A DNA stretch of 64,000 nucleotides from an uncultured Flammeovirgaceae bacterium (GTDB lineage: Bacteria > Bacteroidota > Bacteroidia > Cytophagales > Cyclobacteriaceae), in the NCBI GenBank assembly GCA_937899105.1, contig CALBPF010000339.1:1267-65266 (forward strand), in the 5' to 3' direction. Shown piece after piece: positions 2,714 through 38,690 of this stretch (position 1 is the stretch's first letter; every line of letters starts with the position of its first letter). The translations under genes were made by a program, and so were the position numbers. The notes under the pieces were generated by a model that was given only the letters and a program-made list of their open reading frames with translations, made no database searches and was not told the DNA's origin.

Positions 2714-3020
2714 GGTATCCTTGTAATCTCCAGCTTTAGGAATAATCTTCAGTAATAGATCCGTGAATAGATTGGAACAAGTATGTTAAAAAAATAGAGT
2801 TGATATTGACGTTTAAATTTAATCACCTGTTTATCTAGGGTTAAAAAAATGGTTCAATGTTAACTGTTTATTAAATCGTATAAATAAACTTACATCGTCA
2901 TATCATCCTTTTGGAATTTTAGAAAATTGTTCTAATTTCAAAATTCCATTGGCTAGAAATACCACAAAATAAAAGCAATGTAACTTGCTTCAGCGTAAGC
3001 TGTGCTCAATCGGTAGACTT

Positions 3021-3548
3021 ATGTTATACTCTTCGGATAAATGGTATGTACTGCTTACCATGCCCAAAGCGGAAAAAAAAGTGAGAGACTATCTGGAACG
3101 TAAAAACCTGGAGGTATTTTTACCTTTATATAAGAGGGTAGTTCAGTGGAGCGATAGGAAAAAAAAGCTGTTTGCTCCACTTTTTCCGGGGTACATATTT
3201 GTGCGGTTAGATAATAAAAGTTTTCACAAGGTCTATGACACGCCTGGAGTTTTGAAATTTGTTACGATACAAGGAGTAAAAGACACTGTGCCCGATGACG
3301 AAATTGATACCATCAAGTTATTGATACAGGGTAAGCCTGAAATATGTGAAAGACATTTTGAACCCGGACAGGTCGTAGAGGTATTTTCAGGACCATTTCT
3401 TGGATTAAAGGGTGAGCTTATCAAATATAAAGGCAAAGACAGGGTATTGGTACACTTGAACACTGTAAATAAAAGTGCGATGTTGGAGATCCTACCTAAC
3501 CAACTTAGGAAATGTCCTGGTAAAAAGGTAAGTAAGGTAACTGCCTAG
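3021..3548 (+). CDS. NusG-paralog transcription antiterminator (UpxY / LoaP-like, NGN + KOW)
   Basis: WYVLLTMPKAEKKVRDYLERKNLEVFLPLYKRVVQWSDRKKKLFAPLFPGYIFVRLD is an NGN domain. GQVVEVFSGPFLGLKGELIKYKGKDRVLVHL is a KOW motif. The ORF-track start (TTG 2985) is probably too early; the ATG at 3021 immediately precedes the NGN domain. Confidence 0.8.
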   Translation: MLYSSDKWYVLLTMPKAEKKVRDYLERKNLEVFLPLYKRVVQWSDRKKKLFAPLFPGYIFVRLDNKSFHKVYDTPGVLKFVTIQGVKDTVPDDEIDTIKLLIQGKPEICERHFEPGQVVEVFSGPFLGLKGELIKYKGKDRVLVHLNTVNKSAMLEILPNQLRKCPGKKVSKVTA

Positions 3549-3685: not shown

Positions 3686-3964
3686 ATGAAAAAGAAAGAA
3701 ATAGTAAAAGGACTGAAAGAAATCCTTGTGGACAAATTGGATGTCAATTTAAAAATGGAGAGCATCAAAACTGATGTGCCATTATATGAGGGTGGAATAG
3801 GATTGGATTCGATTTCAATTGTTAATCTGATCGGTCTCACAGAAGAGCGGTTTAATTTCCGCTTTGAAGATGACGAGATCAGTACAGAAATATTTGGCAG
3901 CCTGGATGCACTATCTTCTTTTATTGAAAAAAAACATGCTGCCGCCCAAGTATTTAACCTTTAG
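3686..3964 (+). CDS. Stand-alone acyl/peptidyl carrier protein
   Basis: 92 aa. GGIGLDSISIVNLIGLTEERFNF has the phosphopantetheine attachment Ser in an LDS context, and the size fits a four-helix carrier protein. Confidence 0.75.
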   Translation: MKKKEIVKGLKEILVDKLDVNLKMESIKTDVPLYEGGIGLDSISIVNLIGLTEERFNFRFEDDEISTEIFGSLDALSSFIEKKHAAAQVFNL

Positions 3965-4108
3965 CATTACCTGTCTACAGCGCAAAATACGTTCAAAGCG
4001 CTCATAAATATTAGGGGATGATCATTGCCACTCAATACTATTTGACTTAATCGATGTCTAATTCTTTGCTAGATATTTGACTAATCTTAAAACATCAATT
4101 TCTAAAAA

Positions 4109-5440
4109 ATGGAAGAAACGCTACAAAACCTAATAGTCGGGCAGTCCGAAGCAAAAGGATCGACTTTCGGTACTGCACCTACCAGAAACGAATTTTATAC
4201 CAACTATCCTTATTTTAAGTACTGGAAAAGTGATTTTAATACTCACTTGACTGATCCAGAAGGACTTATCATTTATATTCATATCCCGTTTTGTGTGCAA
4301 ATTTGTGACTACTGTTTCTATATGAGAGAGGTACTCAAATCGCCTAAGCAAATGAGTGAGTACATTGATACATTATGCGAAGAAATTAAACTAGTAAGTA
4401 ACCGCTTTAATCTTCTACATCGTAAGGTAGATGCTATTTACATTGGAGGTGGAACCCCATCTCTTTTGAAGGAAAAGCAGTTTTTCAGAATAGTGGATAC
4501 ACTACATAAGTATCATCAGATAAAAGATCCTGAATTTACTGTAGAGGCTGAGCCCGGAACTTTCAGTTTTAAAAAGATAGAGTGGTACAAGCAAGGAGGC
4601 GTCACTCGCATAAGTATGGGGGTACAATCTTTTGATGACGAAATCATTCGGTTGAGTCACCGAAAACATACAGGTGAAATGGCATTGAAAGCTGTTAATA
4701 TGGTGAAAGATGTGGGATTCTATTCCAATATTGATTTGTTAAGCGGGTTAGCAGGCGAAAGTATGGATACCTGGAGAAAATCTGTAGATACCGCCATCCA
4801 AAGCGGTGTTTCGATGCTAACCATATACCGGATGATCAATTATTCAAATACTACGTTCTTTGATAAATCTGTGCGTAAAGATCAATTGGCTTTACCTTCA
4901 GATCAACAGGAAGTGGAATTTATGACACATGCTGTCCAAAAAGTTCAGAATTCTGGGTATGACAGTTGGAGTTCATATATGTTTGTGAAAGACAATTACA
5001 AACACACCTACACTGAAAAATCATCCAGAGGACATGATCACATTGCTTACGGCGCCTCTTCATTTGGGAAGTTTGGAAATGTGGTTTACCAGAATTCGAA
5101 CATCGTAAAGCTATACAAGGAGAAAGTAGCAAATGGTGAGGTGCCGATCTCGAGAAGTTATGCTTTGTCTGCTAAGGATGAAATGATCAGAGAAATATTG
5201 CTTTGTACTAAATTATTCTCCTACACCAGTGATGAATTCGAGGTGAAATATGGGTTTAATTATATCGATCTGATCAAAGACGCCGTCGTAAAACTTGAAC
5301 GTGAAGACTATATTGCCATAGGAGAAAGAGGTATTGAGCTAACACAAAAGGGAACAGTATTTGGCGATTATGTAGGTATGGCGCTGGCCTCAAGCCTTAA
5401 AAATACATTGGCATTGGATAATATTAGCTTTACTTACTAG
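4109..5440 (+). CDS. HemN-like (class C) radical SAM enzyme
   Basis: 443 aa. IYIHIPFCVQICDYCFY is the CxxxCxxC cluster motif in the HemN context. IYIGGGTPSLL is the HemN-family GGGTP box. RISMGVQSFDD is present, and a C-terminal HemN_C-like region follows. Confidence 0.85.
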   Translation: MEETLQNLIVGQSEAKGSTFGTAPTRNEFYTNYPYFKYWKSDFNTHLTDPEGLIIYIHIPFCVQICDYCFYMREVLKSPKQMSEYIDTLCEEIKLVSNRFNLLHRKVDAIYIGGGTPSLLKEKQFFRIVDTLHKYHQIKDPEFTVEAEPGTFSFKKIEWYKQGGVTRISMGVQSFDDEIIRLSHRKHTGEMALKAVNMVKDVGFYSNIDLLSGLAGESMDTWRKSVDTAIQSGVSMLTIYRMINYSNTTFFDKSVRKDQLALPSDQQEVEFMTHAVQKVQNSGYDSWSSYMFVKDNYKHTYTEKSSRGHDHIAYGASSFGKFGNVVYQNSNIVKLYKEKVANGEVPISRSYALSAKDEMIREILLCTKLFSYTSDEFEVKYGFNYIDLIKDAVVKLEREDYIAIGERGIELTQKGTVFGDYVGMALASSLKNTLALDNISFTY

Positions 5441-5561
5441 TCATAAACTTATCGGATAATAAATCTGCACTATTACTATTGAGCTATAATACGCTGATAT
5501 TATTGTGTTTATTAACCAAGTACAGTGCGTCCGCCTAGATGAATTTTTAAATGAATATATT

Positions 5562-5981: not shown

Positions 5982-6009
5982 TCTAACACCCAGGTAGGCC
6001 GTTTTTTAT

Positions 6010-7428
6010 ATGCACAGCTCTTTCAATACTGAACTGATCAAACAGCGCCTCTTGAATAGCGAAAGCTTGATCTGCGATGAGCAACATACTTTATTTTACA
6101 GTGATTGTGAACCCTTATTTACCAAAAGTACGCGAGATACTTCACTTGATATATTACTTCTCGACAACAGATTACCCATGGTATTGCAACTCATCCATTA
6201 TTTGTTAGATCAAAGAAGTTTTCTAGCGCTTAATGGCACATCTGAAGGCGCTCATTTAAAGGAAAATTTCACCACCTTTTGTAATAAAATAATATCATTC
6301 GATGGAAAAATAAAATGGAGCAATATTAACAGTGGCATTAAGATTTTTGATAATCCATTTTTTCGGTCTCGGAAAGCAATATTTCATGAGGATAAATCAT
6401 ATCTCGTTCTCAAAACTTCCGGCTCTACGAACCGGCCAAAGTTTGTATTACATGATCAAAGCCATGTATTGAGAAACGCGCTAGGTTCGGCCAGCAAGCT
6501 AACTTTATCACCCGAGGACAGAGTGTTGATCCCCGTTCCGGTATACCATTCATATGGACTAACGACCGCATTGATCCCTTCCATCATAGCAGGATGTTCT
6601 GTGAAACTTGTTAGTAACACCAACATAATACGTCTGATAGAGGCAATTAAGTCGTTCAAGCCGACCGTCATGTTTGCCACACCGAGCCTTATCGAAATGT
6701 TGTTGAAAATGAGGACAAAGATTACCATTCCCAAGGTTACCACTACCGCTGGAGACAGGCTAAGGGAAGATCTATTTTTGGAATATGAGCAACGGATTGG
6801 TACTCTTTTGAATCTCTATGGGTCTACAGAAATGGGGGCGATGGCCGTTTCTGATGTGAGTCAACCATTGATTGACAGAGCAAAAAGCGGAGTGAGCGCG
6901 CTGCCGGGTGTAGAATTAAAGGTGCAAAATACTAAAGATCAATCAGGAGCTATATATTGTAAAAACGAAAATCGATTTATTGAATACCTGGATTATGACG
7001 GTGTGAGCATTCATTCTCCCGATAATATCCATAATTGGTTCGATACTAAGGATTATGGTCAATTAAACGGAACCGAGATAAAGGTATTAGGAAGGTCTGA
7101 TCATAAGATCAATCGTAATGGTATTTTATTGTCGTATTTCGAAATTGAGAATGCCATTGCATTAGCCTGTAAGGAATTAAAAAAGGTGGTAGTTGTAAAA
7201 CAACAGTCGGCACAAGATATTATGGGCGCCCAGTTTGCTATTATATGCCAACCAAAAAAGGACGATACTATAATCGATCATGAATTAATAAGACGAAAAT
7301 GTGTAGAAAACTTAAGTAAAAGTATGATTCCCGATGCCATTCAGTTGGTGGATGAAATGCCTCAATTGGCCAATGGTAAGATAGATCGAAGATCCTTACA
7401 AAAAAAGTTTGATCATCTTATTGGATAA
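6010..7428 (+). CDS. Stand-alone ANL-superfamily adenylating enzyme (acyl/aminoacyl-carrier protein or CoA ligase)
   Basis: 472 aa. LKTSGSTNRPKF (A3-like), LYGSTEMG (A5), FDTKDYG (A7), GRSDHKINRNG (A8), ANGKIDRRSL (A10). No carrier or C domain is fused. Confidence 0.8.
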   Translation: MHSSFNTELIKQRLLNSESLICDEQHTLFYSDCEPLFTKSTRDTSLDILLLDNRLPMVLQLIHYLLDQRSFLALNGTSEGAHLKENFTTFCNKIISFDGKIKWSNINSGIKIFDNPFFRSRKAIFHEDKSYLVLKTSGSTNRPKFVLHDQSHVLRNALGSASKLTLSPEDRVLIPVPVYHSYGLTTALIPSIIAGCSVKLVSNTNIIRLIEAIKSFKPTVMFATPSLIEMLLKMRTKITIPKVTTTAGDRLREDLFLEYEQRIGTLLNLYGSTEMGAMAVSDVSQPLIDRAKSGVSALPGVELKVQNTKDQSGAIYCKNENRFIEYLDYDGVSIHSPDNIHNWFDTKDYGQLNGTEIKVLGRSDHKINRNGILLSYFEIENAIALACKELKKVVVVKQQSAQDIMGAQFAIICQPKKDDTIIDHELIRRKCVENLSKSMIPDAIQLVDEMPQLANGKIDRRSLQKKFDHLIG

Positions 7429-7520: not shown

Positions 7521-10500
7521 ATGACTCTGAATAAGATACTTAATGAAAGAGCGTCATTGATAGAAGAAGGAGTTACCTTTATTGAGCAAGGTCGTAAAGA
7601 CTCGTTTCTTTCCTACGCTCAGCTGTACCATAAATCATTAAAGGCTCTAGGGTATTTACAAGAACAAAAGATAATGCCTGGTGACGAGTTGATTTTTCAA
7701 ATTGAAGATAACAAGACTTTTGTCATCATTTTTTGGGCATGCCTATTGGGGGGAATAATACCTGTCCCATTAAGTATCGGCCGTAACGATGAACAACGGA
7801 ATAAGGTTTTTAAGGTATGGAATGTACTGAATAATCCATATTTGGTGATGAACCGAAATCAAAGAACTAAATTTAAAAGAAACATTAACTCCATTAGTAA
7901 ACACTCCCGTTCACGTAAAAATATACTTAAAAAAACATTCTTGACTGATGATATACTTAATGAAAAGAATGAGGGCATCGAGCAAGAAGTGGACTCGGAT
8001 CAAATTGCATTTATACAATTTTCGTCCGGGTCAACAGGCGACCCAAAGGGAGTCGTACTTACACATAAAAACCTATCAACTAATGTCGCTGCAATCAGTC
8101 ACGCCGCGGAATACAGCAAAAATGATTCCCTGATCAGTTGGATGCCGTTAACGCATGACATGGGTTTGATCGGATTTCATATTAACCCCTTATTAAATGG
8201 AATAAACCAATACATAATCAGCACAGATCTATTTATACGGAGGCCATCTGTGTGGTTGGATAAAGCTAGTGAATATAGTGCGACGGTGTTATCTTCTCCT
8301 AATTTCGGCTATAAATATTTAATGAAACATTGCAATGTAGCTGCTCAAAATGAGTGGGACCTTTCTGCTGTAAGAATAGTTTACAATGGGGCAGAGCCCA
8401 TATCATTAGCCATATGCGAGGACTTTTTAGAGGTTATGGCCAGTCAGGGGCTAAAAAGAAATGCCATGTGCCCGGTTTATGGACTAGCAGAGGCAAGTTT
8501 AGCGGTATCCATTTCGGGCATAGAAGATAACATAATTTCCTGTTTACTTGATAGAAACAAACTCAACTTTGGTGATCGAATATCAGAAGTGAATGACAGG
8601 TCAGGCGCGGTTAACTTTGTTAATGTGGGAAAGCCGATCAATGACTGTCTAGTGCGCATTACGAATAATAGAAATGAACCAGTTGCCGATCAAACGATTG
8701 GACACATCCAGATAAAAGGAGATAATGTTACTTCTGGTTATTACAACAATAAAGAAGCTACCAAAGCCGTAGTACAAACAACTGGATGGGTAAAAACCGG
8801 TGATCTGGGTTTTATAAAAGAAGGGGCGCTATACATTACAGGTAGAGAAAAAGACATCATTTTTATCCATGGACAAAACTACTACCCTCATGATATAGAA
8901 AGAGTGGCAGAACAAGTAGAAGGTGTAGAGTTAAACAAGGTGGTGGTTGCAAGCCATCTCGATCATGATACGGGAAAGGAAGAGGTTCTTGTATTTGTTT
9001 ATCATAAACAAGGTATTGAGAAATTCATTCCTATAGTTCATACTTTGAAGAATGTGATCAACAAAGAGATCGGCATAGAAATAGATAAAGTATTGCCGGT
9101 GAGGGACATTCCCAAAACCACCAGCGGCAAGCTTCAAAGGTATAAGTTGGTTGAGCGTTATAAGGACGGCTACTACGATAATGTAGAGTTACAATTAGAG
9201 AGAGTAGATGTCCAGGAGGTCACATCAACAAATACTGTTGAACCGCCTGCCAACGAAACCGAGAAAAGATTGCTGAGGATCTGGCAAAGAGTTTTGAAAG
9301 ATGAGGGCCTGGGCGTTACAAGTCCATTTCTTAGTGTAGGCGGAAATTCGTTAAGAGCTGCGGAAATTGAAATGTGGGTATTAAAAGAATTTCAATTAGA
9401 CCTGCCAGCTAGTCTGATATATGAAAAAGGTACAGTTAGGGCGGTTGCCAATGAGATCACAACGCTTGATGCACAAAGATATAACCCGATCCCCAAAGTA
9501 ACTTCCCAGGGTCAATACCCATTAACCTCGGCTCAAAAACCACTTTATTATGGATGGGAAGCAAATAAGAATTCAATAGCTTACAACATACCTATAGCGC
9601 TATTGGTTGATCGTAAAATAAATGAAGAAAAACTTGAAAGTTGTATCAAAAAAATAATTGCCAGGCATGATGTACTTCGCATGTCATTTAACACTCAGGC
9701 AGAACCTTACTCCCTATTGCACGAAGGAATCGATTTTACCCTGGAATATTCTAAAATTGAAACTAACGAACTTGATAAGGAACTTAAGAAACGTGTAAGA
9801 CCATTTGACCTAAGAAAATTGCCCTTATTCCGGGTTGAGTTAGTCGAAATAGGTCAAGATCGACATATACTGCTCTTAAATTTTCATCATATCATTTCAG
9901 ATGGTATTTCTGTCTACCATTTTATTGAGGAACTCTTTCAGCTTTATGATGGAGGTGTTATTCCTTCACTACCAGCAAGTTATAGAGACTACAGCCACTG
10001 GGAAAGGAAGATTCTGAACTCAGAAACTATAAAATTGCAGCAGGAATATTGGTTAGAGCAACTAGGAGGTGAACTACCTATATTAGATTTACCAACAGAC
10101 TTTTCCCGTCCCGCCATCTTTAGTAGTAGCGGAGAAAAAATACAACTTTGTTTTAATAATACTACTAATAACAAGTTGAGAGTACTTGCTAGTAGGTACC
10201 ACTGTTCCTTGTCAGAACTGATGTTCACGATATACGGATTATTGATTTATACTTACACAAGACAAGAAGATATCATTATAGGCGTGCCCGTTGCGGGAAG
10301 GAAACATCCTGATATATTGAGCTCACAAGGAATGTTTGTGAATAATTTGCCCGTTAGGATACACATTGATAAAAGCCCATCCTTTCTCGACGTACTTGAT
10401 AATCTAAAGACAAGTTTCCATTTGGCGCTTGCCAATCAGCTATATCCATTCGAGTACCTCGTCGACCAAGTTACTGAACGGAGAGACCCAAGCAGAAATC

Positions 10501-13500
10501 CATTATTTGATACAATGTTTGTCTATCAAAACATGGGATTTTCCGACATTAAAACCAACGACTTTAACGCTTCTTGGTATTCATTTGATCCTGGATTCTC
10601 AAAATTTGACCTTTCCATAGAGATTATTGACAATGGAAGCACACTTCACTATGGCTTCGAATATGCTACTGACTTATTTAAAAAAGAAACCATCTTTGGT
10701 CTAATAGATCATTTTGACCGTTTGATTGGCGCAATTCTTAACGATCCAACATGTCAACTGTCTGACTTGTTGGAGCTTACTGCCGCAGAATATGAAAATC
10801 AAATAAGAAAGTATAATGCTTCCCATGCACCATATCCAAAGAATAAGACCATTCATGAATTGTTTAAGGAGCAGGCATGTAAATACAATACTAGCACAGC
10901 TATCTTATTTAATGGCGAGGCCATCACGTATGATCAACTGGATAAAAGCGTTGATAGATTAGCCTTTTCGCTGAGGGAGCAGGGTGTTGAAATAGGCGCT
11001 ATTGTAGGTGTTTTATTTGATCGGTCTCTAGCATTTATAGTAAGTATCCTAGCGGTTATGAAGGCCGGTGGCGCTTATTTACCTATAGATACGGATCTGC
11101 CCATGGGCCGTGTAGAGTATATTTTCAATAATAGTAAATGTGGCTTTGCACTCACATCCGATAGTAACAGTAAGTTGCTGTCCGATCTCATCAATTCCAA
11201 AAACCTCGATCAACACTTAATAACCATTAACGTTGATGAACATGATTTCTTATCCGAACATCAGGCTGAAATAGAAAACATTAATGTAGCTACCGATCTG
11301 GCTTATACAATATATACATCAGGAACAACCGGAGGCCCTAAGGGTGTAATGATAGAGCACAGATCGTTGGTCAATTATATCCATTGGGCGGCAAAAACGT
11401 ATGTAGATGGCCAGGATTCACATTTTCCATTGTTTACTTCCGTTTCATTCGATCTTACTATCACATCGATCTTCACCCCATTATTAACAGGGAATAGAAT
11501 TGTTATTTACGATTCAGATGATATTGCCATCAAGAAGGTGATGGAGGATAATCAGGTTAATGTTATCAAACTGACACCATCACATCTTAAAATCATTAAT
11601 GAGACCCTGACAAATAGCTTCGCATCCAAAAGTAAAGTGAAAAAGTTCATTGTTGGTGGCGAAGCGCTGGATACCTCATTGGCAAGGAAGATTTACGATA
11701 AATTTAATGGGGATATAGAAATTTATAACGAATACGGACCAACAGAGGCTACGGTAGGTTGTATGACCTATTTATTCGATCCTAAAGAAGACTCATTGAC
11801 TGTGCCTATCGGCTTTCCTATCTCTAATGCACAAGTGTATCTTTTGGATGAATCATTTAAGCCGGTCTCCATAGGTATTTACGGTGAGATCTTTGTTTCA
11901 GGAGATGGGGTAGCAAAAGGATATATTTTTAATGAAGAATTAACTTCACAAAAATTTATTCCTGATCCTTTCAGGGAAGGACAAATGATGTATCGGACGG
12001 GTGATGTTGCCAGGCGTCTTTCTTCGGGAGTACTGGAATTTATTCGTCGTAAAGACGAGCAAGTCAAAATTAACGGGTACCGGGTAGAGCTTTCAGAGGT
12101 AGCACATTACCTCAGGAAGTTTGATGGCATAACTGATGCTTTGATAACGGTGCAAAAAGGAGAGCTAAATAATGTAGCGCTGTATGCATACTTTACAACC
12201 AACGAGGAAAAGGAACGGTCTGTAAATGAGTCATCATTGAGAAACTACCTGGCCCAACTACTGCCTTACTATATGGTCCCTGCGCATTTTGCCAGACTTG
12301 AAGAAATTCCGCTTACCCGAAACGGAAAAGTCAACTATGCAAGCCTGCCCTTGGCTAATAATGATGGGAAGTTCAAAAAGCCTGAAAATGATATTGAAAC
12401 TCTTTCAATTGAAGCCTGGGAAAAGGTATTAGGAAATCAATCTTTATCTACTACTCATAACTTCTTTGAGTTAGGTGGGGATTCTATCAAAGCAGTACAG
12501 ATATCTTCGCGGTTAAGAGAAAAAGGAGTTATCATTGAAGTCAGAGATATTCTTACCTATCAATCTATAGACGCTATAAGTCCATATGCCAAAAGGATAG
12601 GTCAAACACGAACCTATGAGCAGGGTGTAATCCAGGGAGAATTTGGCTTGTTTCCAATCGCATCCTGGTTTTTTCATCAAAACTTTAAGAACCCTGATTT
12701 CTATAATCAGTCTGTTTTACTCGATATCAACGATCAACTTAATACACAGCATCTCGAACAAGCCTTTACCTATCTAATTGAATGGCATGATGAACTACGG
12801 ATAAATTATAATCTTGATAAGAACATTTTATTTTACAACACAAAGCACCTTAACAAAAGTTTTGAACTTAATAGCTTTAGTTTATCAGATGCGTCCGAGT
12901 TACCTTTTATCTGTCATAAACTCCGTGATTCCTTTGATATTAAAACAGGCTTATTAATAAAAGCTGCTATTATAAAGGTAAAAGATGATCAGGACGTCAG
13001 ACTGTTTATCGCAGCACATCACCTGGTGATCGATGGCCTGAGCTGGCGTATACTGCTTTCAGACCTTTACCGCATTTATAAAGATATAGAGGCAGGTGTT
13101 TCAATACATATGGCGCAAAAAACGGCTACTTTGATAGAATGGTTTGATGCTTTACAATCTTATCAGTATGCCACCTCGGAGGAAAAATATTGGAAAGATG
13201 TTCAATCGTTAAAATTCAGTATCCCCCAGGATTTTGAGACCCATGATTGGAAAGTAGAAAACCTGGGAAGACTCGGCAGGTCTTTAGAGCAAGAGCAAAC
13301 TGAACTTTTGATTAAGGGAAAACACAACACTTATGGGACCGATGCACTTGTATTGTTAAACGCTGCCCTGGCCATGACACTAGCAGAATGGACAGGTGAA
13401 AAGGTGTTGGTAGTGGAACATGAAAATCATGGAAGACATTTGGAAGGCATTGACGCCTCTCGTACGTTAGGTTGGTTCACAGCATTATATCCTGTTCTAC

Positions 13501-13982
13501 TGAAAATAGAAGAGGAGACTATACCCTCTATTATTAAGTCCGTTAAAGAACAACTAAAACGTGTACCTGGTCAGGGTATTGGATATGGTGTTAGGGCTTT
13601 TATGCATGGGGCTCCCATCAGAACTGACGACTTAAGTTCTGAATTAAGGTTCAATTATCTTGGTCAACTGGATGAGGTAGTGAATAACGATCTATTCAAC
13701 TATAATTCACAATGGTCGGGTATAGAAACCAGTAGGTCGAATCATTTTAGTACAAAATTAGAATGCAATGGTATAGTTGTAAATGGAATATTTTCCCTGG
13801 AAATACTTTATAACCGCAAGGCTCATAAAGACTCTACTATCCAATGGCTAACTGAAAAGTTCTTCAGTTACTTATCGATAATTCTTGATCATATAAAAAA
13901 CGAAGACGACTTACACTTAACTCCTTCCGACTTTGAAACCGCCAATTTGGATCAGCAAGAATTGGATGCATTGTTTGATTAA
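7521..13982 (+). CDS. NRPS-1, lipoinitiation plus module 1: FAAL-T-C-A(Asn-type)-T-E
   Basis: 2153 aa. FAAL: SSGSTGDPKG 8022-8051, WMPLTHDMGLIGF. T: GGNS, Ser codon 9348-9350. C: HHIISDG 9885-9905. A: TSGTTGGPKG 11316-11345, NEYGPTE, NGKVNYASLP; hand-extracted code DLTKIGEVGK. T: GGDSIKAVQ, Ser 12483-12485. E: HHLVIDGLSW 13017-13046. Confidence 0.95.
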   Translation: MTLNKILNERASLIEEGVTFIEQGRKDSFLSYAQLYHKSLKALGYLQEQKIMPGDELIFQIEDNKTFVIIFWACLLGGIIPVPLSIGRNDEQRNKVFKVWNVLNNPYLVMNRNQRTKFKRNINSISKHSRSRKNILKKTFLTDDILNEKNEGIEQEVDSDQIAFIQFSSGSTGDPKGVVLTHKNLSTNVAAISHAAEYSKNDSLISWMPLTHDMGLIGFHINPLLNGINQYIISTDLFIRRPSVWLDKASEYSATVLSSPNFGYKYLMKHCNVAAQNEWDLSAVRIVYNGAEPISLAICEDFLEVMASQGLKRNAMCPVYGLAEASLAVSISGIEDNIISCLLDRNKLNFGDRISEVNDRSGAVNFVNVGKPINDCLVRITNNRNEPVADQTIGHIQIKGDNVTSGYYNNKEATKAVVQTTGWVKTGDLGFIKEGALYITGREKDIIFIHGQNYYPHDIERVAEQVEGVELNKVVVASHLDHDTGKEEVLVFVYHKQGIEKFIPIVHTLKNVINKEIGIEIDKVLPVRDIPKTTSGKLQRYKLVERYKDGYYDNVELQLERVDVQEVTSTNTVEPPANETEKRLLRIWQRVLKDEGLGVTSPFLSVGGNSLRAAEIEMWVLKEFQLDLPASLIYEKGTVRAVANEITTLDAQRYNPIPKVTSQGQYPLTSAQKPLYYGWEANKNSIAYNIPIALLVDRKINEEKLESCIKKIIARHDVLRMSFNTQAEPYSLLHEGIDFTLEYSKIETNELDKELKKRVRPFDLRKLPLFRVELVEIGQDRHILLLNFHHIISDGISVYHFIEELFQLYDGGVIPSLPASYRDYSHWERKILNSETIKLQQEYWLEQLGGELPILDLPTDFSRPAIFSSSGEKIQLCFNNTTNNKLRVLASRYHCSLSELMFTIYGLLIYTYTRQEDIIIGVPVAGRKHPDILSSQGMFVNNLPVRIHIDKSPSFLDVLDNLKTSFHLALANQLYPFEYLVDQVTERRDPSRNPLFDTMFVYQNMGFSDIKTNDFNASWYSFDPGFSKFDLSIEIIDNGSTLHYGFEYATDLFKKETIFGLIDHFDRLIGAILNDPTCQLSDLLELTAAEYENQIRKYNASHAPYPKNKTIHELFKEQACKYNTSTAILFNGEAITYDQLDKSVDRLAFSLREQGVEIGAIVGVLFDRSLAFIVSILAVMKAGGAYLPIDTDLPMGRVEYIFNNSKCGFALTSDSNSKLLSDLINSKNLDQHLITINVDEHDFLSEHQAEIENINVATDLAYTIYTSGTTGGPKGVMIEHRSLVNYIHWAAKTYVDGQDSHFPLFTSVSFDLTITSIFTPLLTGNRIVIYDSDDIAIKKVMEDNQVNVIKLTPSHLKIINETLTNSFASKSKVKKFIVGGEALDTSLARKIYDKFNGDIEIYNEYGPTEATVGCMTYLFDPKEDSLTVPIGFPISNAQVYLLDESFKPVSIGIYGEIFVSGDGVAKGYIFNEELTSQKFIPDPFREGQMMYRTGDVARRLSSGVLEFIRRKDEQVKINGYRVELSEVAHYLRKFDGITDALITVQKGELNNVALYAYFTTNEEKERSVNESSLRNYLAQLLPYYMVPAHFARLEEIPLTRNGKVNYASLPLANNDGKFKKPENDIETLSIEAWEKVLGNQSLSTTHNFFELGGDSIKAVQISSRLREKGVIIEVRDILTYQSIDAISPYAKRIGQTRTYEQGVIQGEFGLFPIASWFFHQNFKNPDFYNQSVLLDINDQLNTQHLEQAFTYLIEWHDELRINYNLDKNILFYNTKHLNKSFELNSFSLSDASELPFICHKLRDSFDIKTGLLIKAAIIKVKDDQDVRLFIAAHHLVIDGLSWRILLSDLYRIYKDIEAGVSIHMAQKTATLIEWFDALQSYQYATSEEKYWKDVQSLKFSIPQDFETHDWKVENLGRLGRSLEQEQTELLIKGKHNTYGTDALVLLNAALAMTLAEWTGEKVLVVEHENHGRHLEGIDASRTLGWFTALYPVLLKIEEETIPSIIKSVKEQLKRVPGQGIGYGVRAFMHGAPIRTDDLSSELRFNYLGQLDEVVNNDLFNYNSQWSGIETSRSNHFSTKLECNGIVVNGIFSLEILYNRKAHKDSTIQWLTEKFFSYLSIILDHIKNEDDLHLTPSDFETANLDQQELDALFD

Positions 13983-14014: not shown

Positions 14015-14995
14015 ATGGTAATACCCAGTATCCTTGAGCACGTCGGCAATACTCCATTGGTTTCTGTGAATATGGATGAATTCAAGCACATAAATCTATT
14101 TGTAAAGGTTGAAAGCTATAACCCAACCGGAAGTGTTAAGGACAGGGCCGCTTCATACATACTAGATAAACTCCTTAAGAATGGAACGATAAATTCGGAA
14201 ACCACTATTATAGAATCTACTTCCGGTAATTTTGGAGTAGCTTTATCTGCCTTTTGCAAACATTACAATTTAAGTTTCATTGCAGTAGTAGATTCGCATA
14301 TAACCACAATAAACGAAATGCTGATAAGGTCAAATGGAGCAAAAATCATTAAGGTTACAGAACCTGATAAATATGGAGGATATCTTCTCAACAGGATAAA
14401 AAAAGTCGAAGAACTTCAAAGTAAAATAAACAATTCGTATTGGGTGAATCAGTATGAGAATCCATTAAATGCTAAGGCCTATTATCAATCCCTGGGGAAA
14501 GAGTTATGCTTTCAAATAGAAGAAATGGACTATGTTTTTTTAGGTATAAGCTCAGGGGGAACAATTACAGGGGTTTCTAAGAAGATAAAAGAAAATTTTC
14601 CCCGGGCCAAAGTCATAGCTGTAGATGTAGAAGGTTCTCAAATATTTAAAAATTCTCCGATGAAAAGATACATTCCGGGAATAGGATCGAGTCTTAAGCC
14701 AAAAATAATTGAAGATGCTTTGATCGACGATGTGGTCATCACCGATGAAGTATCTACTATTCAGGCTTGTTATGAACTTCTACAAAAGTATAATTTCTTT
14801 GTTGGCGGTTCCTCCGGCTCCGTCTTTGCCGGAATAAAAAAATTCTTTGCCGATATGCCTAAGGAAAAAGTGAATATTGTTTCTGTTTTTCCTGATAGGG
14901 GAGAGCGTTATTTTGACACAATCTACAACAAGAAATGGGTAGAACGGGTGATTTCAATGAAGCAGGAATCGGCAGTTTCAGCCCTATATTCATAA
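14015..14995 (+). CDS. sbnA: PLP-dependent cysteine-synthase-fold enzyme, SbnA-type (2,3-diaminopropionate biosynthesis, step 1)
   Basis: 326 aa. GNTPLV, NPTGSVKDRAASYIL (PLP lysine), IIESTSGNFGVALS, GISSGGTITG. It sits directly upstream of an SbnB-like gene, which is the diagnostic pairing. Confidence 0.8.
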   Translation: MVIPSILEHVGNTPLVSVNMDEFKHINLFVKVESYNPTGSVKDRAASYILDKLLKNGTINSETTIIESTSGNFGVALSAFCKHYNLSFIAVVDSHITTINEMLIRSNGAKIIKVTEPDKYGGYLLNRIKKVEELQSKINNSYWVNQYENPLNAKAYYQSLGKELCFQIEEMDYVFLGISSGGTITGVSKKIKENFPRAKVIAVDVEGSQIFKNSPMKRYIPGIGSSLKPKIIEDALIDDVVITDEVSTIQACYELLQKYNFFVGGSSGSVFAGIKKFFADMPKEKVNIVSVFPDRGERYFDTIYNKKWVERVISMKQESAVSALYS

Positions 14996-15030
14996 ATTCA
15001 AAATATTAATCTAGAAGTTAACTGAATTCT

Positions 15031-15990
15031 ATGCTGATCCAAGATGATGATAGTATAAGGAGAATTGGTATAAACTGGAATAAGACGGTTCAAGTAATAG
15101 AGAAAACAGTTTTATGCCTTCATTCAAATATTTATGCTCAACCTATAAAACCATATTTAAGGTACGGTGATATGAAAAATCGAATTATCGCTATGCCTGC
15201 GTACGTTGGAGGAGCGGTCAATCTCGCTGGCATCAAATGGATCTCAAGCTTTCCTGATAATATTAAAAAAGGACTTCCCAGGGCACACAGTGTTATAATA
15301 TTAAATGATCCGGATACCGGCGCTCCTATAGGGGTTATTAATACCCCGTTAATTAGCGTTATTCGTACTGCGTCAGTTAGTGGATTAATGATCAAGCATT
15401 TTTGCCGCTCAAGAGAACTGCAAGATGTACACATTGGTATAACAGGTTTTGGACCCATAGGTCAGTATCACTTGCAAATGTGTAAACACCTGTTTGGAGA
15501 TCGTATAGAATCCGTCTCTATCTATGATAAAAGAGCAATAGACCCGCTTTTAATTGGTGATGATCCCAAAATAGGCATCGTAGATAGCTGGGAAAAAGCT
15601 TATACCAACTCCGATATCTTCATCACATGTACCGTTTCAGACACTCCTTATATTGATAAGAAGCCCAAGGAGAGATCTCTTCATCTAAACGTTTCACTTA
15701 GAGATTATAAATCACTTGTTTATCAATGGTTTAAAGATTCTATTATTGTAGATAATTGGGAGGAAGTATGCAGAGAAAAAACGGATATTGAAATGATGCA
15801 CTTGAAAATGAAATTAAAAAAGGAGCAGACAAAATCAATCGTTGATGTTGTTGTAAATGATGTTATAAACGATTTTGAGACTGATGCCCCAATAATGTTC
15901 AATCCTATGGGAATGGCCGTGTTTGATATTGCTATAGGAGGGTTATACTTTCAAGCCGAAAAGAAAGAGATTTTGCACGAAATGGTTTAA
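15031..15990 (+). CDS. sbnB: Ornithine cyclodeaminase/mu-crystallin family NAD enzyme, SbnB-type (2,3-diaminopropionate biosynthesis, step 2)
   Basis: 319 aa. RIIAMPAYVGGAVNLAGIKWISSFPDNIKKGLPRAHSVIILNDPDTGAPI, ISVIRTASVSG, and a Rossmann GITGFGPIGQ motif. Adjacent to the SbnA-like gene. Confidence 0.75.
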   Translation: MLIQDDDSIRRIGINWNKTVQVIEKTVLCLHSNIYAQPIKPYLRYGDMKNRIIAMPAYVGGAVNLAGIKWISSFPDNIKKGLPRAHSVIILNDPDTGAPIGVINTPLISVIRTASVSGLMIKHFCRSRELQDVHIGITGFGPIGQYHLQMCKHLFGDRIESVSIYDKRAIDPLLIGDDPKIGIVDSWEKAYTNSDIFITCTVSDTPYIDKKPKERSLHLNVSLRDYKSLVYQWFKDSIIVDNWEEVCREKTDIEMMHLKMKLKKEQTKSIVDVVVNDVINDFETDAPIMFNPMGMAVFDIAIGGLYFQAEKKEILHEMV

Positions 15991-16067: not shown

Positions 16068-18461
16068 ATGTCTTTTGTACAAAGTATAGCCTTTAATCAT
16101 ATGACACGTCACAACCTTACCTTTATCTATCGTAGCTTTAAGAAAAACAAGAGTTGGTTTTTTATCAATTGGTTGGGCCTTTCTACCGGATTGGTTTGCG
16201 CCTTACTAATTTATTTATGGGTGAAAAGTGAGTTAGGGGTTGATAAATTCCATGAGAATGATGCCAGGTTGTTTCAGGTAATGAAAACAAATGAATATTC
16301 TAATGGTGTTAAAACTTTTGAAATGACCCCCGGTCCTTTAGCCGAAGCGCTGACTGCTGAAATTCCTGAGATTGAATATGCCGTAAATATTTATTCGCTT
16401 CAAAACGGTACAATTATGTTGGAGGATAATTCTGAAATACGAGCCAAAGAGATATTTGCCGGTAAGGATCTATTTAATGTTTTTTCCTTCAACCTGATTG
16501 AAGGGAATGAAGACCAACTGCTGGAAAAAAATGATGCCGTCGTCATTTCTGAAGAGCTTTCACTGAAAATATTTAATACGACAGAAAATGTTGTTGGCAG
16601 AACCATCGATTGGAATCAGGCGGATTTTAGCGGTACTTATCTTATCACGGGTGTATTTGAAAGTACTCCGGAGAATTCGACGCTCCAATTTGATGTAGTA
16701 TATTCTTACGATCTTTTCGCAACAAAGAAACCTGATCAATACAGTTGGGGATACAATGATCCTTTTACCTATGTAGTGTTAAATTCTTCATCCACCTTGG
16801 ATGGAATAGACCAGAAGATGACCCGATTAATAAGGGAAAAAAGTGAAGATGAATCATCAACGCTATTCCTGCATTTATTTTCTGACAAATACCTGAAAGG
16901 AACTTTTGTTAACGGTGTCCAATCTGGTGGCAGAATAACCTATGTTAAACTTTTTTCCATCATTGCCATTGCCATATTGTCCATTGCGTGGATCAACTTC
17001 ATGAATCTATCTACCGCCCAGGCATCTAAGCGACTCAAAGAAGTCGGTATAAAAAAAGCCTTAGGCATAAGGCGCGGAGCACTCGTTTTTCAATTTCTGG
17101 GAGAGTCCACTGTACTGACCATTTTATCGTTGTTTACCGCATTATTATTTGTATTTCTGTTCCTTCCCCAATTCAATTTAATTGTTGGAAAACAACTTAT
17201 CCTACAACTTAATGCCGACCTTGTGCTTTACACTTTAGTTCTCCTTCTTCTAACAGGGCTGATTTCAGGGAGTTACCCGGCATTCTATTTGTCAGGGTTT
17301 AATGCCGTAACCCTGCTTAAAGGTAAGATAGTGACCAAAACAGGTGAGTTGTGGACAAGAAAAGCTCTGGTAGTGTTTCAGTTCTTGGTGTCTGTTCTGC
17401 TTATTGTTTCTGTTATAGTTATCTACTACCAAATCGAATTTATACAAAATAAAAATCTAGGATATAGCAGGGATAATGTTATCTACTTCAAAAAAGAGGG
17501 TAGAATAGCTCAAAAGCTTGAGACCTTTCTGCTAGCAATGGAAAATATTCCGGGAGTAGTAAATGCCACAAGTTTTGCCCATAATCTAACTGGTGACCAT
17601 GGTAAAACTTCTGGCTTGGTGTGGGAAGGCCGTTCGCCTGAAGAGCAAATTGCCTTTAGTTTTATTAACGCCAACTATAACTTCATTGAATTATTAGATA
17701 TTAACGTGAAGAAAGGAAGATCTTTCTCCAGGGATTTTAGTACTGATGATGCAAAGATTATTTTTAATGAGATGGCCATTGAAACGATGGGGCTGGAGGA
17801 TCCAATTGGCAAAATAGTTAATCTATGGGGTCAGGACAGGGAAATAGTCGGCATTGTTGAAAACTTTCATTTCGAATCGCTTTATGAAGAGATTAAACCC
17901 TGCTTTTTCAAAATATCTGATTACGGTGATCATATAATGATCAGAATGGAAGCAGGTACAACACGGCAGACTATTAGCAAGATTCAGAAATTCTTTGAAG
18001 AATATAATAATGGGCTACCATTCGATTTTAAGTTTATAGATGAAGATTATCAGGCTTTGTACGAATCGGAAAACAGAGTTGCTGTCTTGTCCAAGTACTT
18101 TGCTGTGATAGCCATTGTAATATCATGTCTTGGTTTATTTGCATTGGCTGCTTTTACCTCTCAAAAAAGGCTTAAAGAAATAGGAATCAGAAAAACGCTA
18201 GGTGCAAGCGAAATGAGCATTGTGTACCTTCTTTCAAGTAGTTTTACACGGACAGTATCTATTTCACTTATCATTGCACTACCATTAAGTTATTTTGCCT
18301 TGAGAGAGTGGCTTGACCAATTTATATATCGGGTAGACCTGGAGTTATGGTATTTCATATTGGCAGGTTTTATGGCGTTGCTTATCACCTGGTTAACTGT
18401 TGGCATGCAGACCATAAAAGCATCTAAAGTCAATCCTTTGAGTATTTTGAAAGAGGATTAA
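16068..18461 (+). CDS. MacB-like ABC transporter permease with two FtsX domains (Bacteroidota ~800-aa type)
   Basis: 797 aa. N-terminal TM helix (FINWLGLSTGLVCALLIYLW), a large extracytoplasmic domain, a 4-TM block, a second extracytoplasmic domain and a second FtsX block (KRLKEIGIRKTLGAS..). An alternative start is the ATG at 16101. No ATPase gene lies nearby. Confidence 0.8.
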   Translation: MSFVQSIAFNHMTRHNLTFIYRSFKKNKSWFFINWLGLSTGLVCALLIYLWVKSELGVDKFHENDARLFQVMKTNEYSNGVKTFEMTPGPLAEALTAEIPEIEYAVNIYSLQNGTIMLEDNSEIRAKEIFAGKDLFNVFSFNLIEGNEDQLLEKNDAVVISEELSLKIFNTTENVVGRTIDWNQADFSGTYLITGVFESTPENSTLQFDVVYSYDLFATKKPDQYSWGYNDPFTYVVLNSSSTLDGIDQKMTRLIREKSEDESSTLFLHLFSDKYLKGTFVNGVQSGGRITYVKLFSIIAIAILSIAWINFMNLSTAQASKRLKEVGIKKALGIRRGALVFQFLGESTVLTILSLFTALLFVFLFLPQFNLIVGKQLILQLNADLVLYTLVLLLLTGLISGSYPAFYLSGFNAVTLLKGKIVTKTGELWTRKALVVFQFLVSVLLIVSVIVIYYQIEFIQNKNLGYSRDNVIYFKKEGRIAQKLETFLLAMENIPGVVNATSFAHNLTGDHGKTSGLVWEGRSPEEQIAFSFINANYNFIELLDINVKKGRSFSRDFSTDDAKIIFNEMAIETMGLEDPIGKIVNLWGQDREIVGIVENFHFESLYEEIKPCFFKISDYGDHIMIRMEAGTTRQTISKIQKFFEEYNNGLPFDFKFIDEDYQALYESENRVAVLSKYFAVIAIVISCLGLFALAAFTSQKRLKEIGIRKTLGASEMSIVYLLSSSFTRTVSISLIIALPLSYFALREWLDQFIYRVDLELWYFILAGFMALLITWLTVGMQTIKASKVNPLSILKED

Positions 18462-38521: not shown

Positions 38522-38690
38522 GTGAAAGTAGAGAAAATCATTAGCGAGCTCACTAAAAAAGGAGCAAAGTTAAGAGTAGTTGATCATTCCCTTAAAGTGA
38601 ATGCAGATCATGGAGTGATCACTCCTGAATTGCAAAAATTGATCAGAGAGCATAAAGGGGACATCATAAATTTCATTACTGCCTCCGCAA
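38522..38690 (+). other. TubC_N-like N-terminal docking domain of NRPS-5
   Basis: MKVEKIISELTKKGAKLRVVDHSLKVNADHGVITPELQKLIREHKGDIINFI has the same pattern as the NRPS-4 and NRPS-7 N-termini. Confidence 0.55.

Follow-up and report, generated by a model that had tools for sequence, protein, structure and literature searches.

The combination of an acyl group, Asn, its epimerisation, a secreted S12 hydrolase and a permease is known from prodrug systems such as ClbN/ClbP. In pyoverdine biosynthesis the first NRPS, PvdL, carries a fused fatty-acid-activating domain and yields an acylated precursor, which loses its acyl group in the periplasm; the MacB-type pump PvdT (PvdRT-OpmQ) carries the product out. 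A FAAL-T-C start is, at the same time, the standard way of lipoinitiation for lipopeptides with a retained lipid. MtaG and MelG contain an inserted monooxygenase, linked to hydroxylation of the Gly α-carbon and located in the last module, and TriF and BogQ are encoded inside NRPS clusters. As regards the enzymes, residue Trp466 of the ClbP transmembrane domain is essential for activity (PMC9889268), and Lip3 and Lip7 have Sec signal peptides and cleave D-L bonds in lipopeptides (PMC12903863).

The window, i.e., the whole stretch of 64,000 nucleotides that was analysed, comes from an uncultured member of the Bacteroidota and encodes an NRPS starter of 2153 aa (ORF 7521-13982), for which Pfam (two AMP-binding, two PP-binding and two Condensation-type matches) and motif mapping give the order FAAL-T-C-A-T-E:

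7521..9200, + strand: FAAL-like domain, aa 1-560 (NCBIfam match; A3 motif SGSTGDPKG at aa 169)
9273..9470, + strand: T1 carrier domain (VGGNSL at aa 606, Ser at about aa 609; Pfam PP-binding in two stretches)
9507..10799, + strand: starter C domain, predicted to join acyl-S-T1 and Asn-S-T2 (Pfam Condensation, aa 663-1093; HHIISDG at aa 789)
10863..12350, + strand: starter A domain with Asn code DLTKIGEVGK (aa 1115-1610 by motif mapping; Pfam AMP-binding, aa 1115-1468)
12411..12581, + strand: T2 carrier domain (LGGDSI; Pfam PP-binding, aa 1631-1687; GGDS at aa 1651)
12618..13982, + strand: E (epimerisation) domain, predicted product N-acyl-D-Asn (HHLVIDGLSW at aa 1833, ENHGR, TLGWFT, FNYLG)

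The top NCBIfam match of the N-terminal 640 aa is 'fatty acyl-AMP ligase' PRK09192 (1e-109, aa 15-552), at a score below the curated cut-off. The Stachelhaus codes were read by alignment to GrsA, and that of the starter agrees at 9 of 10 positions with DLTKVGEVGK of ClbN (E. coli CFT073); the starter C-A-T-E as a whole is no nearer to ClbN than to the remaining NRPSs of the Clb system (27% identity). The starter C domain groups with C domains downstream of non-epimerised residues, and the E domain shares 28-29% identity with the three further E domains encoded in the window.

The NRPS, S12 hydrolase and permease genes share one long one-strand operon of a predicted peptide-antibiotic cluster, in which the following further features were recognized:

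2985..3548, + strand: UpxY-family (NusG-like) transcription antiterminator at the operon head (Pfam NusG/KOW)
3686..3961, + strand: stand-alone carrier protein of 91 aa (GLDSISIV; from an ORF scan of the intergenic gap, by motif only)
4109..5440, + strand: HemN/ChuW-like radical SAM enzyme (Pfam Radical_SAM)
6010..7428, + strand: stand-alone acyl-CoA-ligase-like adenylating enzyme (Pfam AMP-binding)
14015..15990, + strand: pair of SbnA-like (PALP) and SbnB-like (ornithine cyclodeaminase family) genes (Pfam)
16068..18461, + strand: MacB/FtsX-type duplicated permease of the ADOP family, candidate exporter (Pfam, NCBIfam)
20751..26621, + strand: module 2, C-A(Asn)-T-E, and the C domain of module 3 (code, motifs)
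26618..34078, + strand: modules 3-4, A(Thr)-T-E-C-A(Gly, with luciferase-like monooxygenase insert)-T
37501..38448, + strand: TauD-family dioxygenase, predicted β-hydroxylase (Pfam TauD)
49195..50655, + strand: secreted S12 (β-lactamase-fold) serine hydrolase, candidate D-peptidase on the exported product
51875..53731, + strand: glutamine-hydrolysing asparagine synthase (NCBIfam asn_synth_AEB, 449 bits, above cut-off)

Module 2 (20751-26621) falls outside the starter coordinates 7521-13982. Its Asn code is identical to that of the starter, and its E domain has motifs E1, E4, E5 and E7, with E2 reading HHLVVDSVSW, a Gly-to-Ser variant. The first-pass annotation had described module 1 as FAAL-T-C-A(Asn code)-T-E and module 2 as Asn again with an E domain, and the domain, motif and code data bear it out on both; the same is true of a signal-peptide-bearing S12 hydrolase and a MacB-like permease encoded in the cluster (Pfam, NCBIfam, signal-like helix). 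Modules 3-4 constitute one gene, which an in-frame TAG (32255-32257) breaks within the window; in a sister assembly the gene is uninterrupted, a single ORF of 2486 aa. The C domains after E1, E2 and E3 cluster together, apart from those after non-epimerised residues, which is the pattern that active E domains would produce, and this grouping fits the predicted D-Asn1, D-Asn2 and D-Thr3.

The antiterminator matches NCBIfam antiterm_UpxY above cut-off (1e-40), and a NusG-domain gene is also present upstream of the starter in loci L083, L084 and L086. Possible roles are partnership of the 91-aa carrier protein in acyl starter synthesis and acyl-chain methylation by the radical SAM enzyme (top NCBIfam matches rSAM_HutW and hemN_rel, both below cut-off); the adenylating enzyme matches NCBIfam MenE and acyl-CoA ligase models, also below cut-off. 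The SbnA/SbnB-like pair, a common Bacteroidetes subcluster (PMC9248904), is predicted to supply 2,3-diaminopropionate. In Pfam the permease matches MacB_PCD plus FtsX twice; among NCBIfam models it matches ADOP at 1e-77 (below cut-off) and DarB permease at 4e-30. In L085, L088 and L090 such a gene follows the starter, in L035, L039 and L050 the S12 gene. The asparagine synthase is probably an Asn supply; homologues with 66-75% identity accompany the S12 gene, at a distance of up to about 5 kb, in L018, L019, L020, L022 and L032.

The starter is a portable stand-alone protein of about 2150 aa with more than 100 Bacteroidota homologues. Those of 2050-2300 aa number 105, with identities of 45-53% over 100% coverage; the code DLTK[IV]GE[VI][GC]K is kept in about 100 and the E2 motif in about 90 of them. 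Module 2 differs among these clusters, being Asn, Gly-like or other, or a PKS comes next, and the downstream parts include NRPS-PKS hybrids. Since residue 1 alone is constant, the doubled D-Asn put forward in the first-pass annotation cannot be regarded as a family trait. It may be observed separately that a conserved first residue could stem from common descent alone, which is a point against a prodrug reading.

The S12 gene adjoins the starter in seven genomes (L035, L036, L039, L041-43, L050), with the SbnA/SbnB pair between the two. In the four genomes checked (Flavobacterium jejuense, Chryseosolibacter histidini, Fulvivirga marina and a Sphingobacteriales MAG) both genes are on one strand and the distance from the starter down to S12 is 36-47 kb; in the window it is 35 kb. 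Starter and S12 match lists have 20 contigs in common, 14 of them directly between the lists. Within 10 kb of the starter homologues of L088, L089 and L090, the part of these clusters that was covered, there is no S12 gene, a point against the prodrug reading. NRPS domains are found within 10 kb of the S12 gene at 41 of 59 loci with at least 33% identity, and at 2 of 21 below that value; in the tree the S12 proteins from NRPS clusters form one distinct clade. These data weigh against the idea that the S12 gene has no link to the product and is a mere passenger, with a housekeeping role in the cell wall or as a β-lactamase. It could draw on weak NCBIfam similarity to class C β-lactamase and AmpH, far below cut-offs, but is disfavoured and highly improbable given the distribution of the clade and the position of the gene between NRPS genes on the same strand.

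Comparative genomics, with a conserved starter in more than 100 clusters and an S12 clade that travels with it, strengthens the analogy to prodrug starters. The starter, the secreted S12 hydrolase and the MacB-type permease recur as a conserved set across many Bacteroidota clusters with variable later modules, and the recurrence of starter and S12 in related clusters suggests that a lipid-Asn cap may be removed after export. It is tentatively proposed, with confidence just short of even, that in the window they constitute a ClbP-independent leader or prodrug system. A fatty acid would be activated by the FAAL-like domain, held on the starter's own T1 and joined by the C domain to Asn picked by the A domain; epimerisation by the E domain would give N-acyl-D-Asn, and a second Asn, likewise epimerised, would be added by module 2. 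Acyl-D-Asn would serve as a constant N-terminal handle and would not belong to the pharmacophore. Once the product has reached the periplasm, S12, acting as a D-stereospecific peptidase, would cut on the carboxyl side of D-Asn, after residue 1 or here possibly residue 2, and free the mature peptide, which the MacB-type pump would expel. Such a working principle may be likened to ClbN/ClbP prodrug logic and PvdL/PvdQ delipidation, with the differences that the peptidase would come from a separate, soluble S12 lineage and the lipid would be loaded by a fused FAAL.

What kind of enzyme is the S12 protein? Pfam Beta-lactamase covers aa 39-342, the N-terminus has a hydrophobic signal-like helix, and the catalytic motif is S92-x-x-K95. 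A signal-peptide-like segment is present in 32 of 32 aligned members, and the C-terminal domain is all-helical, soluble and TPR-like. Catalytic Ser, Lys and Tyr are all intact, the YxN motif reads YSG with its Asn replaced, and the third motif starts with His, Gln or Phe, so that His/Lys is not conserved. C-terminal transmembrane helices occur in none of 120 S12 relatives, as compared with 83 of 97 ClbP relatives; the position of ClbP Ser188, the residue that contacts the side chain of D-Asn, is an invariant Gly, and the catalytic domains have just 20-27% identity. Membership of the ClbP family was ruled out on these three grounds. In the tree ClbP lies outside the clade of cluster-associated S12 proteins, which are no nearer to it than to other S12 enzymes; there was no Bacteroidota sequence among the best 120 ClbP relatives and no ClbP among the top 50 Foldseek matches of the S12 model. 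The residues aligned with ClbP Glu92 and Asn331 are kept, but the Asn331 equivalent is not diagnostic, since relatives outside NRPS clusters (L056, L067, L070) also have it; the Glu92 equivalent, too, occurs in non-cluster relatives. Intact catalytic residues, the signal-peptide-like segments, the two ClbP-like positions, an Asn synthase in the cluster and D-specific peptidases as the best solved sequence relatives favour the cleavage proposed above; the missing transmembrane domain, the Gly, the varied third motif and the Foldseek result tell against it. The N-acyl-D-Asn prodrug analogy drawn earlier stands at the NRPS level (C-A(Asn)-T-E, ClbN-like code, S12 plus permease) and fails for the peptidase type: the phylogeny and active-site comparison place the enzyme apart from ClbP, and with neither the three-helix transmembrane domain nor Ser/Thr188 it is not of the ClbP/XcnG/ZmaM type.

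The main rival reading is an ordinary lipopeptide that would retain its N-acyl-D-Asn(-D-Asn) terminus as a lipid anchor in the mature form. S12 would then serve producer protection or product recycling, as a D-stereospecific resistance peptidase like TriF/BogQ, or cut at another D-residue, and the starter would be conserved through a shared cluster ancestor followed by recombination of downstream modules. The usual lipoinitiation by FAAL-T-C, the lack of the ClbP-specific transmembrane domain and Ser188, and the closest solved relatives by sequence (ADP, 4y7p, 9e-21; Lip3 DL-peptidase, 9sn1, 2e-20), instead of ClbP, agree with it, as do several predicted D-residues that S12 could target and the retained lipid of known Bacteroidota NRPS products (chitinopeptins, pedopeptins, cryopeptins). 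However, a constant residue 1 before a variable remainder, NRPS-PKS hybrids included, is unusual for a pharmacophore element, the gene combination is that of known prodrug systems, and periplasmic destruction of its outgoing product would be costly to a Gram-negative cell. This explanation is a serious one, although on balance doubtful.

The fold of the S12 model leaves room for another maturation hydrolase, namely a transpeptidase or a family VIII-type esterase, which leaves acyl-D-Asn untouched and opens, closes or trims the exported peptide, e.g., at a lactone or at decorating carbamoyl groups or methyl esters. Esterases, DD-peptidases and class C β-lactamases are equally near in Foldseek; the top match is esterase IS11, and SurE, a PBP-type cyclase, was also matched. 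Such a role would be in keeping with YSG in place of YxN, the degenerate third motif, an FkbM methyltransferase gene adjoining the S12 gene in the window, and TauD homologues (56-69% identity) within 10 kb of the S12 gene, mostly adjacent, in 25 of the 59 loci with at least 33% S12 identity. Yet the signal peptides on all members exclude NRPS off-loading in the cytoplasm, and S12 tracks the starter protein, even directly adjacent, and not any single downstream chemistry, so this alternative is unlikely.

The cap might also be shed independently of S12, if the luciferase-like monooxygenase of module 4 hydroxylated the Gly α-carbon as in MtaG/MelG and the hemiaminal split into acyl-D-Asn-D-Asn-D-Thr-amide and a glyoxylyl peptide. 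Bac_luciferase does interrupt the Gly-code A domain in 26618-34078, and Tenacibaculum relatives have a Gly-like A domain right after Asn module 2, whose only partly readable code would fit an insertion. Here, however, at least five modules follow the domain, many starter-bearing clusters have no such module near the start, and S12 co-occurrence would be left unexplained; shedding of this kind is very improbable.

Compared with known systems, the chitinopeptin, pedopeptin/isopedopeptin and cryopeptin clusters come from the same phylum and share with the window the SbnA/SbnB subcluster, TauD-type hydroxylases and long one-strand NRPS operons; they initiate by a C-starter or PKS, their products keep the lipid, and the publications consulted describe neither a FAAL-T-C-A(Asn)-T-E starter nor an S12 gene for any of them. 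ADP and Lip3, although the closest solved sequence matches of the S12 protein, reach only about 20-24% identity; the YxN motif of such peptidases reads YSG in the window, and the C-terminal domain of Lip3 is β-rich, not helical and TPR-like. Lip3 and Lip7 target lipopeptides of other organisms, and TriF and BogQ inactivate an antibiotic instead of activating it. The PvdL/PvdQ/PvdRT-OpmQ system resembles the window in fused fatty-acid activation and a MacB-type permease, but PvdQ is an Ntn hydrolase that removes the fatty acid only, pyoverdine involves no S12 enzyme and its first residue is Glu, not D-Asn. With the ClbN/ClbP, XcnA/XcnG, ZmaM, AmiB and PamJ systems the window has in common the C-A(Asn)-T-E starter, an S12 hydrolase with an N-terminal export signal, a transporter, and one starter motif joined to unrelated downstream chemistry across clusters. 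Unlike ClbP, its S12 protein has a soluble TPR-like domain in place of the three-helix transmembrane domain and Gly where that family has Ser/Thr188, and unlike ClbN-type starters, with a starter C domain alone, acyl loading is assigned to a fused FAAL-T.

In the ORF scan of the window, every large ORF except one was on the + strand, and together these make up a single NRPS operon with a GC content of 0.35-0.42. Its genes are arranged in the following order.

Features of the operon (positions in the window)
2985-3548, + strand: UpxY-type antiterminator, first gene of the operon
3686-3961, + strand: small carrier protein, second in order
Between the carrier protein and the 158-aa ORF: HemN-like radical SAM enzyme
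Between the radical SAM and acyl-CoA-ligase-like genes: 158-aa ORF, no family match
Directly before the starter gene: acyl-CoA-ligase-like enzyme
7521-13982, + strand: starter NRPS (2153 aa), predicted FAAL-T-C-A-T-E
Between the starter and the permease: SbnA/SbnB-like pair
Between the SbnA/SbnB-like pair and the carbamoyltransferase: duplicated MacB/FtsX permease
Between the permease and the NRPS genes starting at 20751: carbamoyltransferase
20751 to the window end: NRPS genes, broken by the TauD gene and by the S12/FkbM/asparagine synthase block
37501-38448: TauD gene, between NRPS genes
49195-50655 (S12 hydrolase), 50709-51767 (FkbM methyltransferase) and asparagine synthase: one block between NRPS genes

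The same S12 protein is also present on scaffold_37 of the ENA assembly ERZ23487454. The four genes just upstream of the starter (3686-7428; carrier protein, radical SAM enzyme, 158-aa ORF and ligase-like enzyme) may build or modify the acyl starter, and the relative locus L045 likewise has a radical SAM enzyme and a ligase encoded close to its S12 gene. Genes of the UpxY family (NusG-like) are placed upstream of the starter in the window (2985-3548) and in the relative loci L083 (9238-9747), L084 (5285-5830) and L086 (9233-9733), which suggests processive antitermination over these operons of more than 50 kb; LoaP and RfaH are factors of this kind in other systems. At the 5′ edge, upstream of the cluster, a short ORF (108-320) resembles a transposase fragment when read by eye only.

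Three in-frame stops were found in the operon: TAA at 18909-18911, in the carbamoyltransferase, TAG at 32255-32257, within the monooxygenase insert of an NRPS gene, and TAG at 37069-37071, within the A10 motif of another. A sister assembly, which is 99.76% identical to the window across 20.9 kb, has the two TAG codons replaced by TCG and TTG, giving uninterrupted ORFs of 2486 aa and 1112 aa; conversely, TTA at 41763 of the window is TAA there. Since the sister assembly carries sense codons at the TAG sites and the 50 substitutions are clustered, the stops are most readily explained as noise of the assembly or of the population within repeated NRPS sequence, so that the assembly line is probably intact. 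The same sense codons in so close a sister speak against a pseudogenised pathway, and TAG recoding was rejected in view of four normal-length genes that also end in TAG. An exact look-up of the product of 34075-37071 gave no match.

The first-pass annotation had described the starter as FAAL-T-C-A(Asn)-T-E, and this domain order was borne out, with a FAAL-like first domain. Pfam assigned two AMP-binding, two PP-binding and two Condensation-type domains; the first 640 aa matched best among NCBIfam models the 'fatty acyl-AMP ligase' PRK09192, below its cut-off (367 bits, cut-off 600), and the last 450 aa hold the complete set of E-domain core motifs. A fused T domain directly follows the FAAL-like domain, ahead of the C domain. 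Alignment to GrsA gave the A-domain specificity code DLTKIGEVGK, and ClbN of E. coli CFT073 gave DLTKVGEVGK by the same method; the likeness to a C-A(Asn)-T-E start of the ClbN/XcnA type was thus found in both domain order and code. Module 2 (20751-26621) had been read as again Asn with an E domain, correctly: its code is identical to that of the starter and it carries an E domain, in which the second motif is HHLVVDS in place of HHxxxDG. Behind each of the three N-terminal E domains stands a C domain, and these C domains cluster together, apart from the remaining C domains, as expected for C domains with D-acceptors. The predicted start of the product is acyl-D-Asn-D-Asn-D-Thr, with Gly (from the A domain that carries the monooxygenase insert), a second Gly, Asp-like, Thr, Ser and Ser predicted thereafter.

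Several further features of the assembly line deserve mention. The E domain of the starter (12618-13982) shares only 28-29% identity with the three E domains found elsewhere in the window, and those share 40-42% among themselves; this fits a separate evolution of the starter from the rest of the line. In module 4, a luciferase-like monooxygenase is inserted between the core motifs of the Gly-code A domain (DILQLGMIWK; ~31200-33900 in 26618-34078). The insertion is of the same type as in MtaG and MelG, where a luciferase-like monooxygenase in a Gly A domain hydroxylates the Gly alpha-carbon, with the difference that in the window it sits mid-pathway. The FkbM methyltransferase (50709-51767) could methylate the hydroxyl left by such hydroxylation, and fragmentation of the product at Gly4 driven by the monooxygenase is very unlikely. 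The three Tenacibaculum loci L041-43 have a Gly-like A domain, its code only partly readable, right after their Asn module 2. A tandem C-C didomain was observed upstream of a Thr A domain (38522-49018, aa 1555-2455). Its second C domain has the variant motif HHIMVDR, and its nearest relative is an unusual C domain that lacks HHxxxD and precedes a Ser A domain (53871-61040, aa 1345-1760); both may act as dehydrating C domains and yield dehydro-amino acids.

The starter is, from protein comparison, a conserved and portable protein. The protein search returned more than 100 Bacteroidota homologues of near-equal length, with 45-53% identity across 100% of the query, and among the 105 homologues of 2050-2300 aa the code DLTK[IV]GE[VI][GC]K was present in about 100 and the E2 signature in about 90. 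What comes after the starter varies: Asn plus an E domain in the window and in Flavobacterium jejuense, Asn in Tenacibaculum, a Gly-like code in Chryseosolibacter and Fulvivirga (in the latter followed by PKS modules) and another code in a Sphingobacteriales MAG. The doubled D-Asn, put forward earlier as a variant of the prodrug logic, is present in the window; since residue 1 alone is constant, it characterises certain members but not the family as a whole. In one Cytophagales-like genome (L090) a gene for an APH-type kinase (16551-17525) directly follows the starter and may encode a second self-resistance device acting by phosphorylation.

The signal-peptide-bearing S12 hydrolase and the MacB-like permease were both found as described in the first-pass annotation. 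When the S12 family alignment was scanned against one genome per species, 80 loci were obtained. NRPS domains lay within 10 kb of the S12 gene in 41 of the 59 loci whose S12 protein reaches 33% identity or more, and 8 further loci of these 59 had cluster-type genes only (TauD, SbnA/B, carbamoyltransferase); below 33% identity, just 2 of 21 loci had NRPS domains. The order starter-SbnA-SbnB-S12 was found in Aquimarina (L035, L039), Mucilaginibacter (L036), Tenacibaculum (L041-43) and Fulvivirga imtechensis (L050, with one or two extra genes before the S12 gene), and in L035, L039 and L050 the next gene after S12 encodes a MacB-type permease. Elsewhere the S12 gene shares the strand of the starter but follows it at a greater distance, 47 kb downstream in Flavobacterium jejuense, 39.5 kb in Chryseosolibacter histidini, 37 kb in Fulvivirga marina and 36 kb in the Sphingobacteriales MAG, the distance in the window being 35 kb. 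Fourteen contigs, matched by identical length, were common to the starter and S12 hit lists, and 6 more were added through the S12 scan loci, giving 20; three further starters showed no S12 gene within 10 kb. Neighbour-joining of the catalytic domains put the cluster-associated S12 proteins into one clade, separate from relatives outside clusters, and left ClbP far off as the outgroup. By its sequence the S12 protein thus belongs to a clade that is specific to these clusters and accompanies the starter; that its gene is a mere passenger is scarcely credible. About half of the S12 relatives are longer (620-650 aa) and bear additional C-terminal domains of carbohydrate-binding type (PF03422, PF18099), which have no evident role in a peptide pathway.

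The hydrolase had been set beside ClbP, and a phylogeny with an active-site comparison had been proposed; the outcome went against this affiliation, with ClbP in outgroup position, Gly173 in the S12 protein and no transmembrane domain. The ClbP sequence from CFT073 agrees with the residue numbering of Velilla et al. (PMC9889268). The catalytic S92, K95 and Y171, invariant in the 32-sequence family alignment, align with ClbP S95, K98 and Y186. Kyte-Doolittle analysis placed hydrophobic segments at 385-413, 432-455 and 462-491 in ClbP, whereas the S12 protein has its N-terminal signal only; three C-terminal segments were found in 0 of 120 S12-protein relatives (119 with none, 1 with a single one) and in 83 of 97 ClbP relatives. 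ClbP needs its C-terminal transmembrane helices for activity (PMC9889268). Position 188 of ClbP, Ser or Thr in 14 ClbP-family representatives, hydrogen-bonds the D-Asn side chain, whereas the S12 family has an invariant glycine there (Gly173, motif YSGEG). The third-motif His of ClbP is His, Gln or Phe in the S12 family. In ClbP, Asn331 confers D-Asn specificity and is oriented by Glu92; these residues align with Asn316, two residues after the third-motif Gly, and Glu89, three residues before the Ser (hhalign probability 99.1; MAFFT), both at least 90% conserved. The Asn331 equivalent also occurs in the non-cluster relatives L056, L067 and L070 and therefore cannot serve by itself as a mark of D-Asn specificity. 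The catalytic domain shares 20-27% identity with that of ClbP, which falls outside the entire Bacteroidota S12 set in the tree. In phmmer against PDB sequences ClbP scored 1.5e-11, over aa 43-211 only, and the alkaline D-peptidase ADP 9e-21. ClbP was absent from the Foldseek top 50 for the S12 model, and the best 120 ClbP relatives came from Enterobacteria, Gilliamella and Firmicutes, with no Bacteroidota sequence among them. Judged by these comparisons, the S12 protein is not a ClbP-family enzyme.

In the AF2 model (pLDDT 91.3) a soluble TPR-like domain of seven helices (aa 372-485) comes after the beta-lactamase fold. By Foldseek the model is as close to esterases as to DD-peptidases, D-specific hydrolases and class C beta-lactamases. 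Some other hydrolytic maturation step is an unlikely role for the enzyme. A PBP-type off-loading cyclase (SurE-like) was ruled out, as all members of the S12 family have signal peptides. The canonical YxN second and H/K-x-G third motifs are lacking and read YSG and [H/Q/F]-x-G. The best solved sequence relatives are ADP and the DL-peptidase Lip3, which is secreted and cuts D-L bonds in lipopeptides (PMC12903863). With the D-stereospecific and DL-peptidases (ADP, TriF/BogQ, Lip3/Lip7) the protein shares the S12 fold, the catalytic Ser-Lys-Tyr and predicted secretion. TriF and BogQ are S12 enzymes that act in self-protection or turnover. The main rival to removal of the acyl-D-Asn cap is an ordinary lipopeptide family that retains it and whose S12 enzyme would act in the same way as TriF and BogQ, a reading that is possible but on the doubtful side.

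For cap removal, the sequence-level basis consists of the acyl-D-Asn-primed line, the S12 hydrolase, which is secreted and probably active, the MacB-type permease, the asparagine synthase and the conserved starter-S12 association. Acyl-D-Asn would be a constant handle on the product; the S12 enzyme would remove it in the periplasm by cutting on the carboxyl side of D-Asn1, here possibly D-Asn2, and the MacB-type pump would then expel the product. Removal is favoured because acyl group, Asn, epimerisation, secreted S12 enzyme and permease recur jointly across diverse clusters, which is hard to explain by descent alone. Counting against it, the S12 enzyme is without two of the substrate-binding elements of ClbP. 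We give cap removal followed by export close to, but below, an even chance. Close relatives of both proteins are all from Bacteroidota. The wider proposal is a phylum-wide leader or prodrug system of Bacteroidota's own, of origin independent of the ClbP family, in which a portable starter would cap diverse products with N-acyl-D-Asn and a soluble periplasmic S12 lineage, its TPR-like domain standing where ClbP has a membrane domain, would uncap them before MacB-type export; this is advanced tentatively, at somewhat less than an even chance.

The literature searched described no Bacteroidota acyl-D-Asn starter with an S12 partner and no product for any cluster of the starter family. The papers on chitinopeptin, pedopeptin/isopedopeptin, cryopeptin and aquicidine describe neither a FAAL-Asn starter nor an S12 gene, and a match to these known products was dropped. 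In the case of cap removal, over 100 Bacteroidota clusters would make des-acyl peptides with a free N-terminus, and the lipopeptides predicted by genome mining or synthetic-bioinformatic approaches would not be the true products. It would also mean a second, structurally different recognition of N-acyl-D-Asn, by a soluble enzyme without membrane domain, of use as a tool and for studies of ClbP specificity. In a phylum that has been little explored, the pair of starter and S12 genes would then be a simple genome-mining handle for compounds that are self-toxic and hence probably potent; among the carriers, Flavobacterium jejuense EC11, Chryseosolibacter histidini PWU4, Fulvivirga marina 29W222, Tenacibaculum sp. 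M341, Aquimarina sp. AU474 and Mucilaginibacter sp. OK098 can be cultivated. Should the product retain its cap, the clusters would represent a large, uncharacterised acyl-D-Asn lipopeptide family with a dedicated secreted D-peptidase.

Provided that cleavage takes place, the logic would resemble the N-acyl-D-Asn prodrug motif, except that the peptidase comes from another lineage and a FAAL-like domain is fused to the starter. In systems of the ClbN/XcnA type the acyl group enters via a starter C domain without fused ligase, whereas the starter of the window begins with a FAAL-like domain and its own T domain. Peptidase and transporter are encoded together with the starter in those systems, and likewise in the window (S12 gene and MacB/FtsX permease). 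The proposed cap removal and subsequent export would run parallel to both ClbN/ClbP and PvdL/PvdQ/PvdRT.
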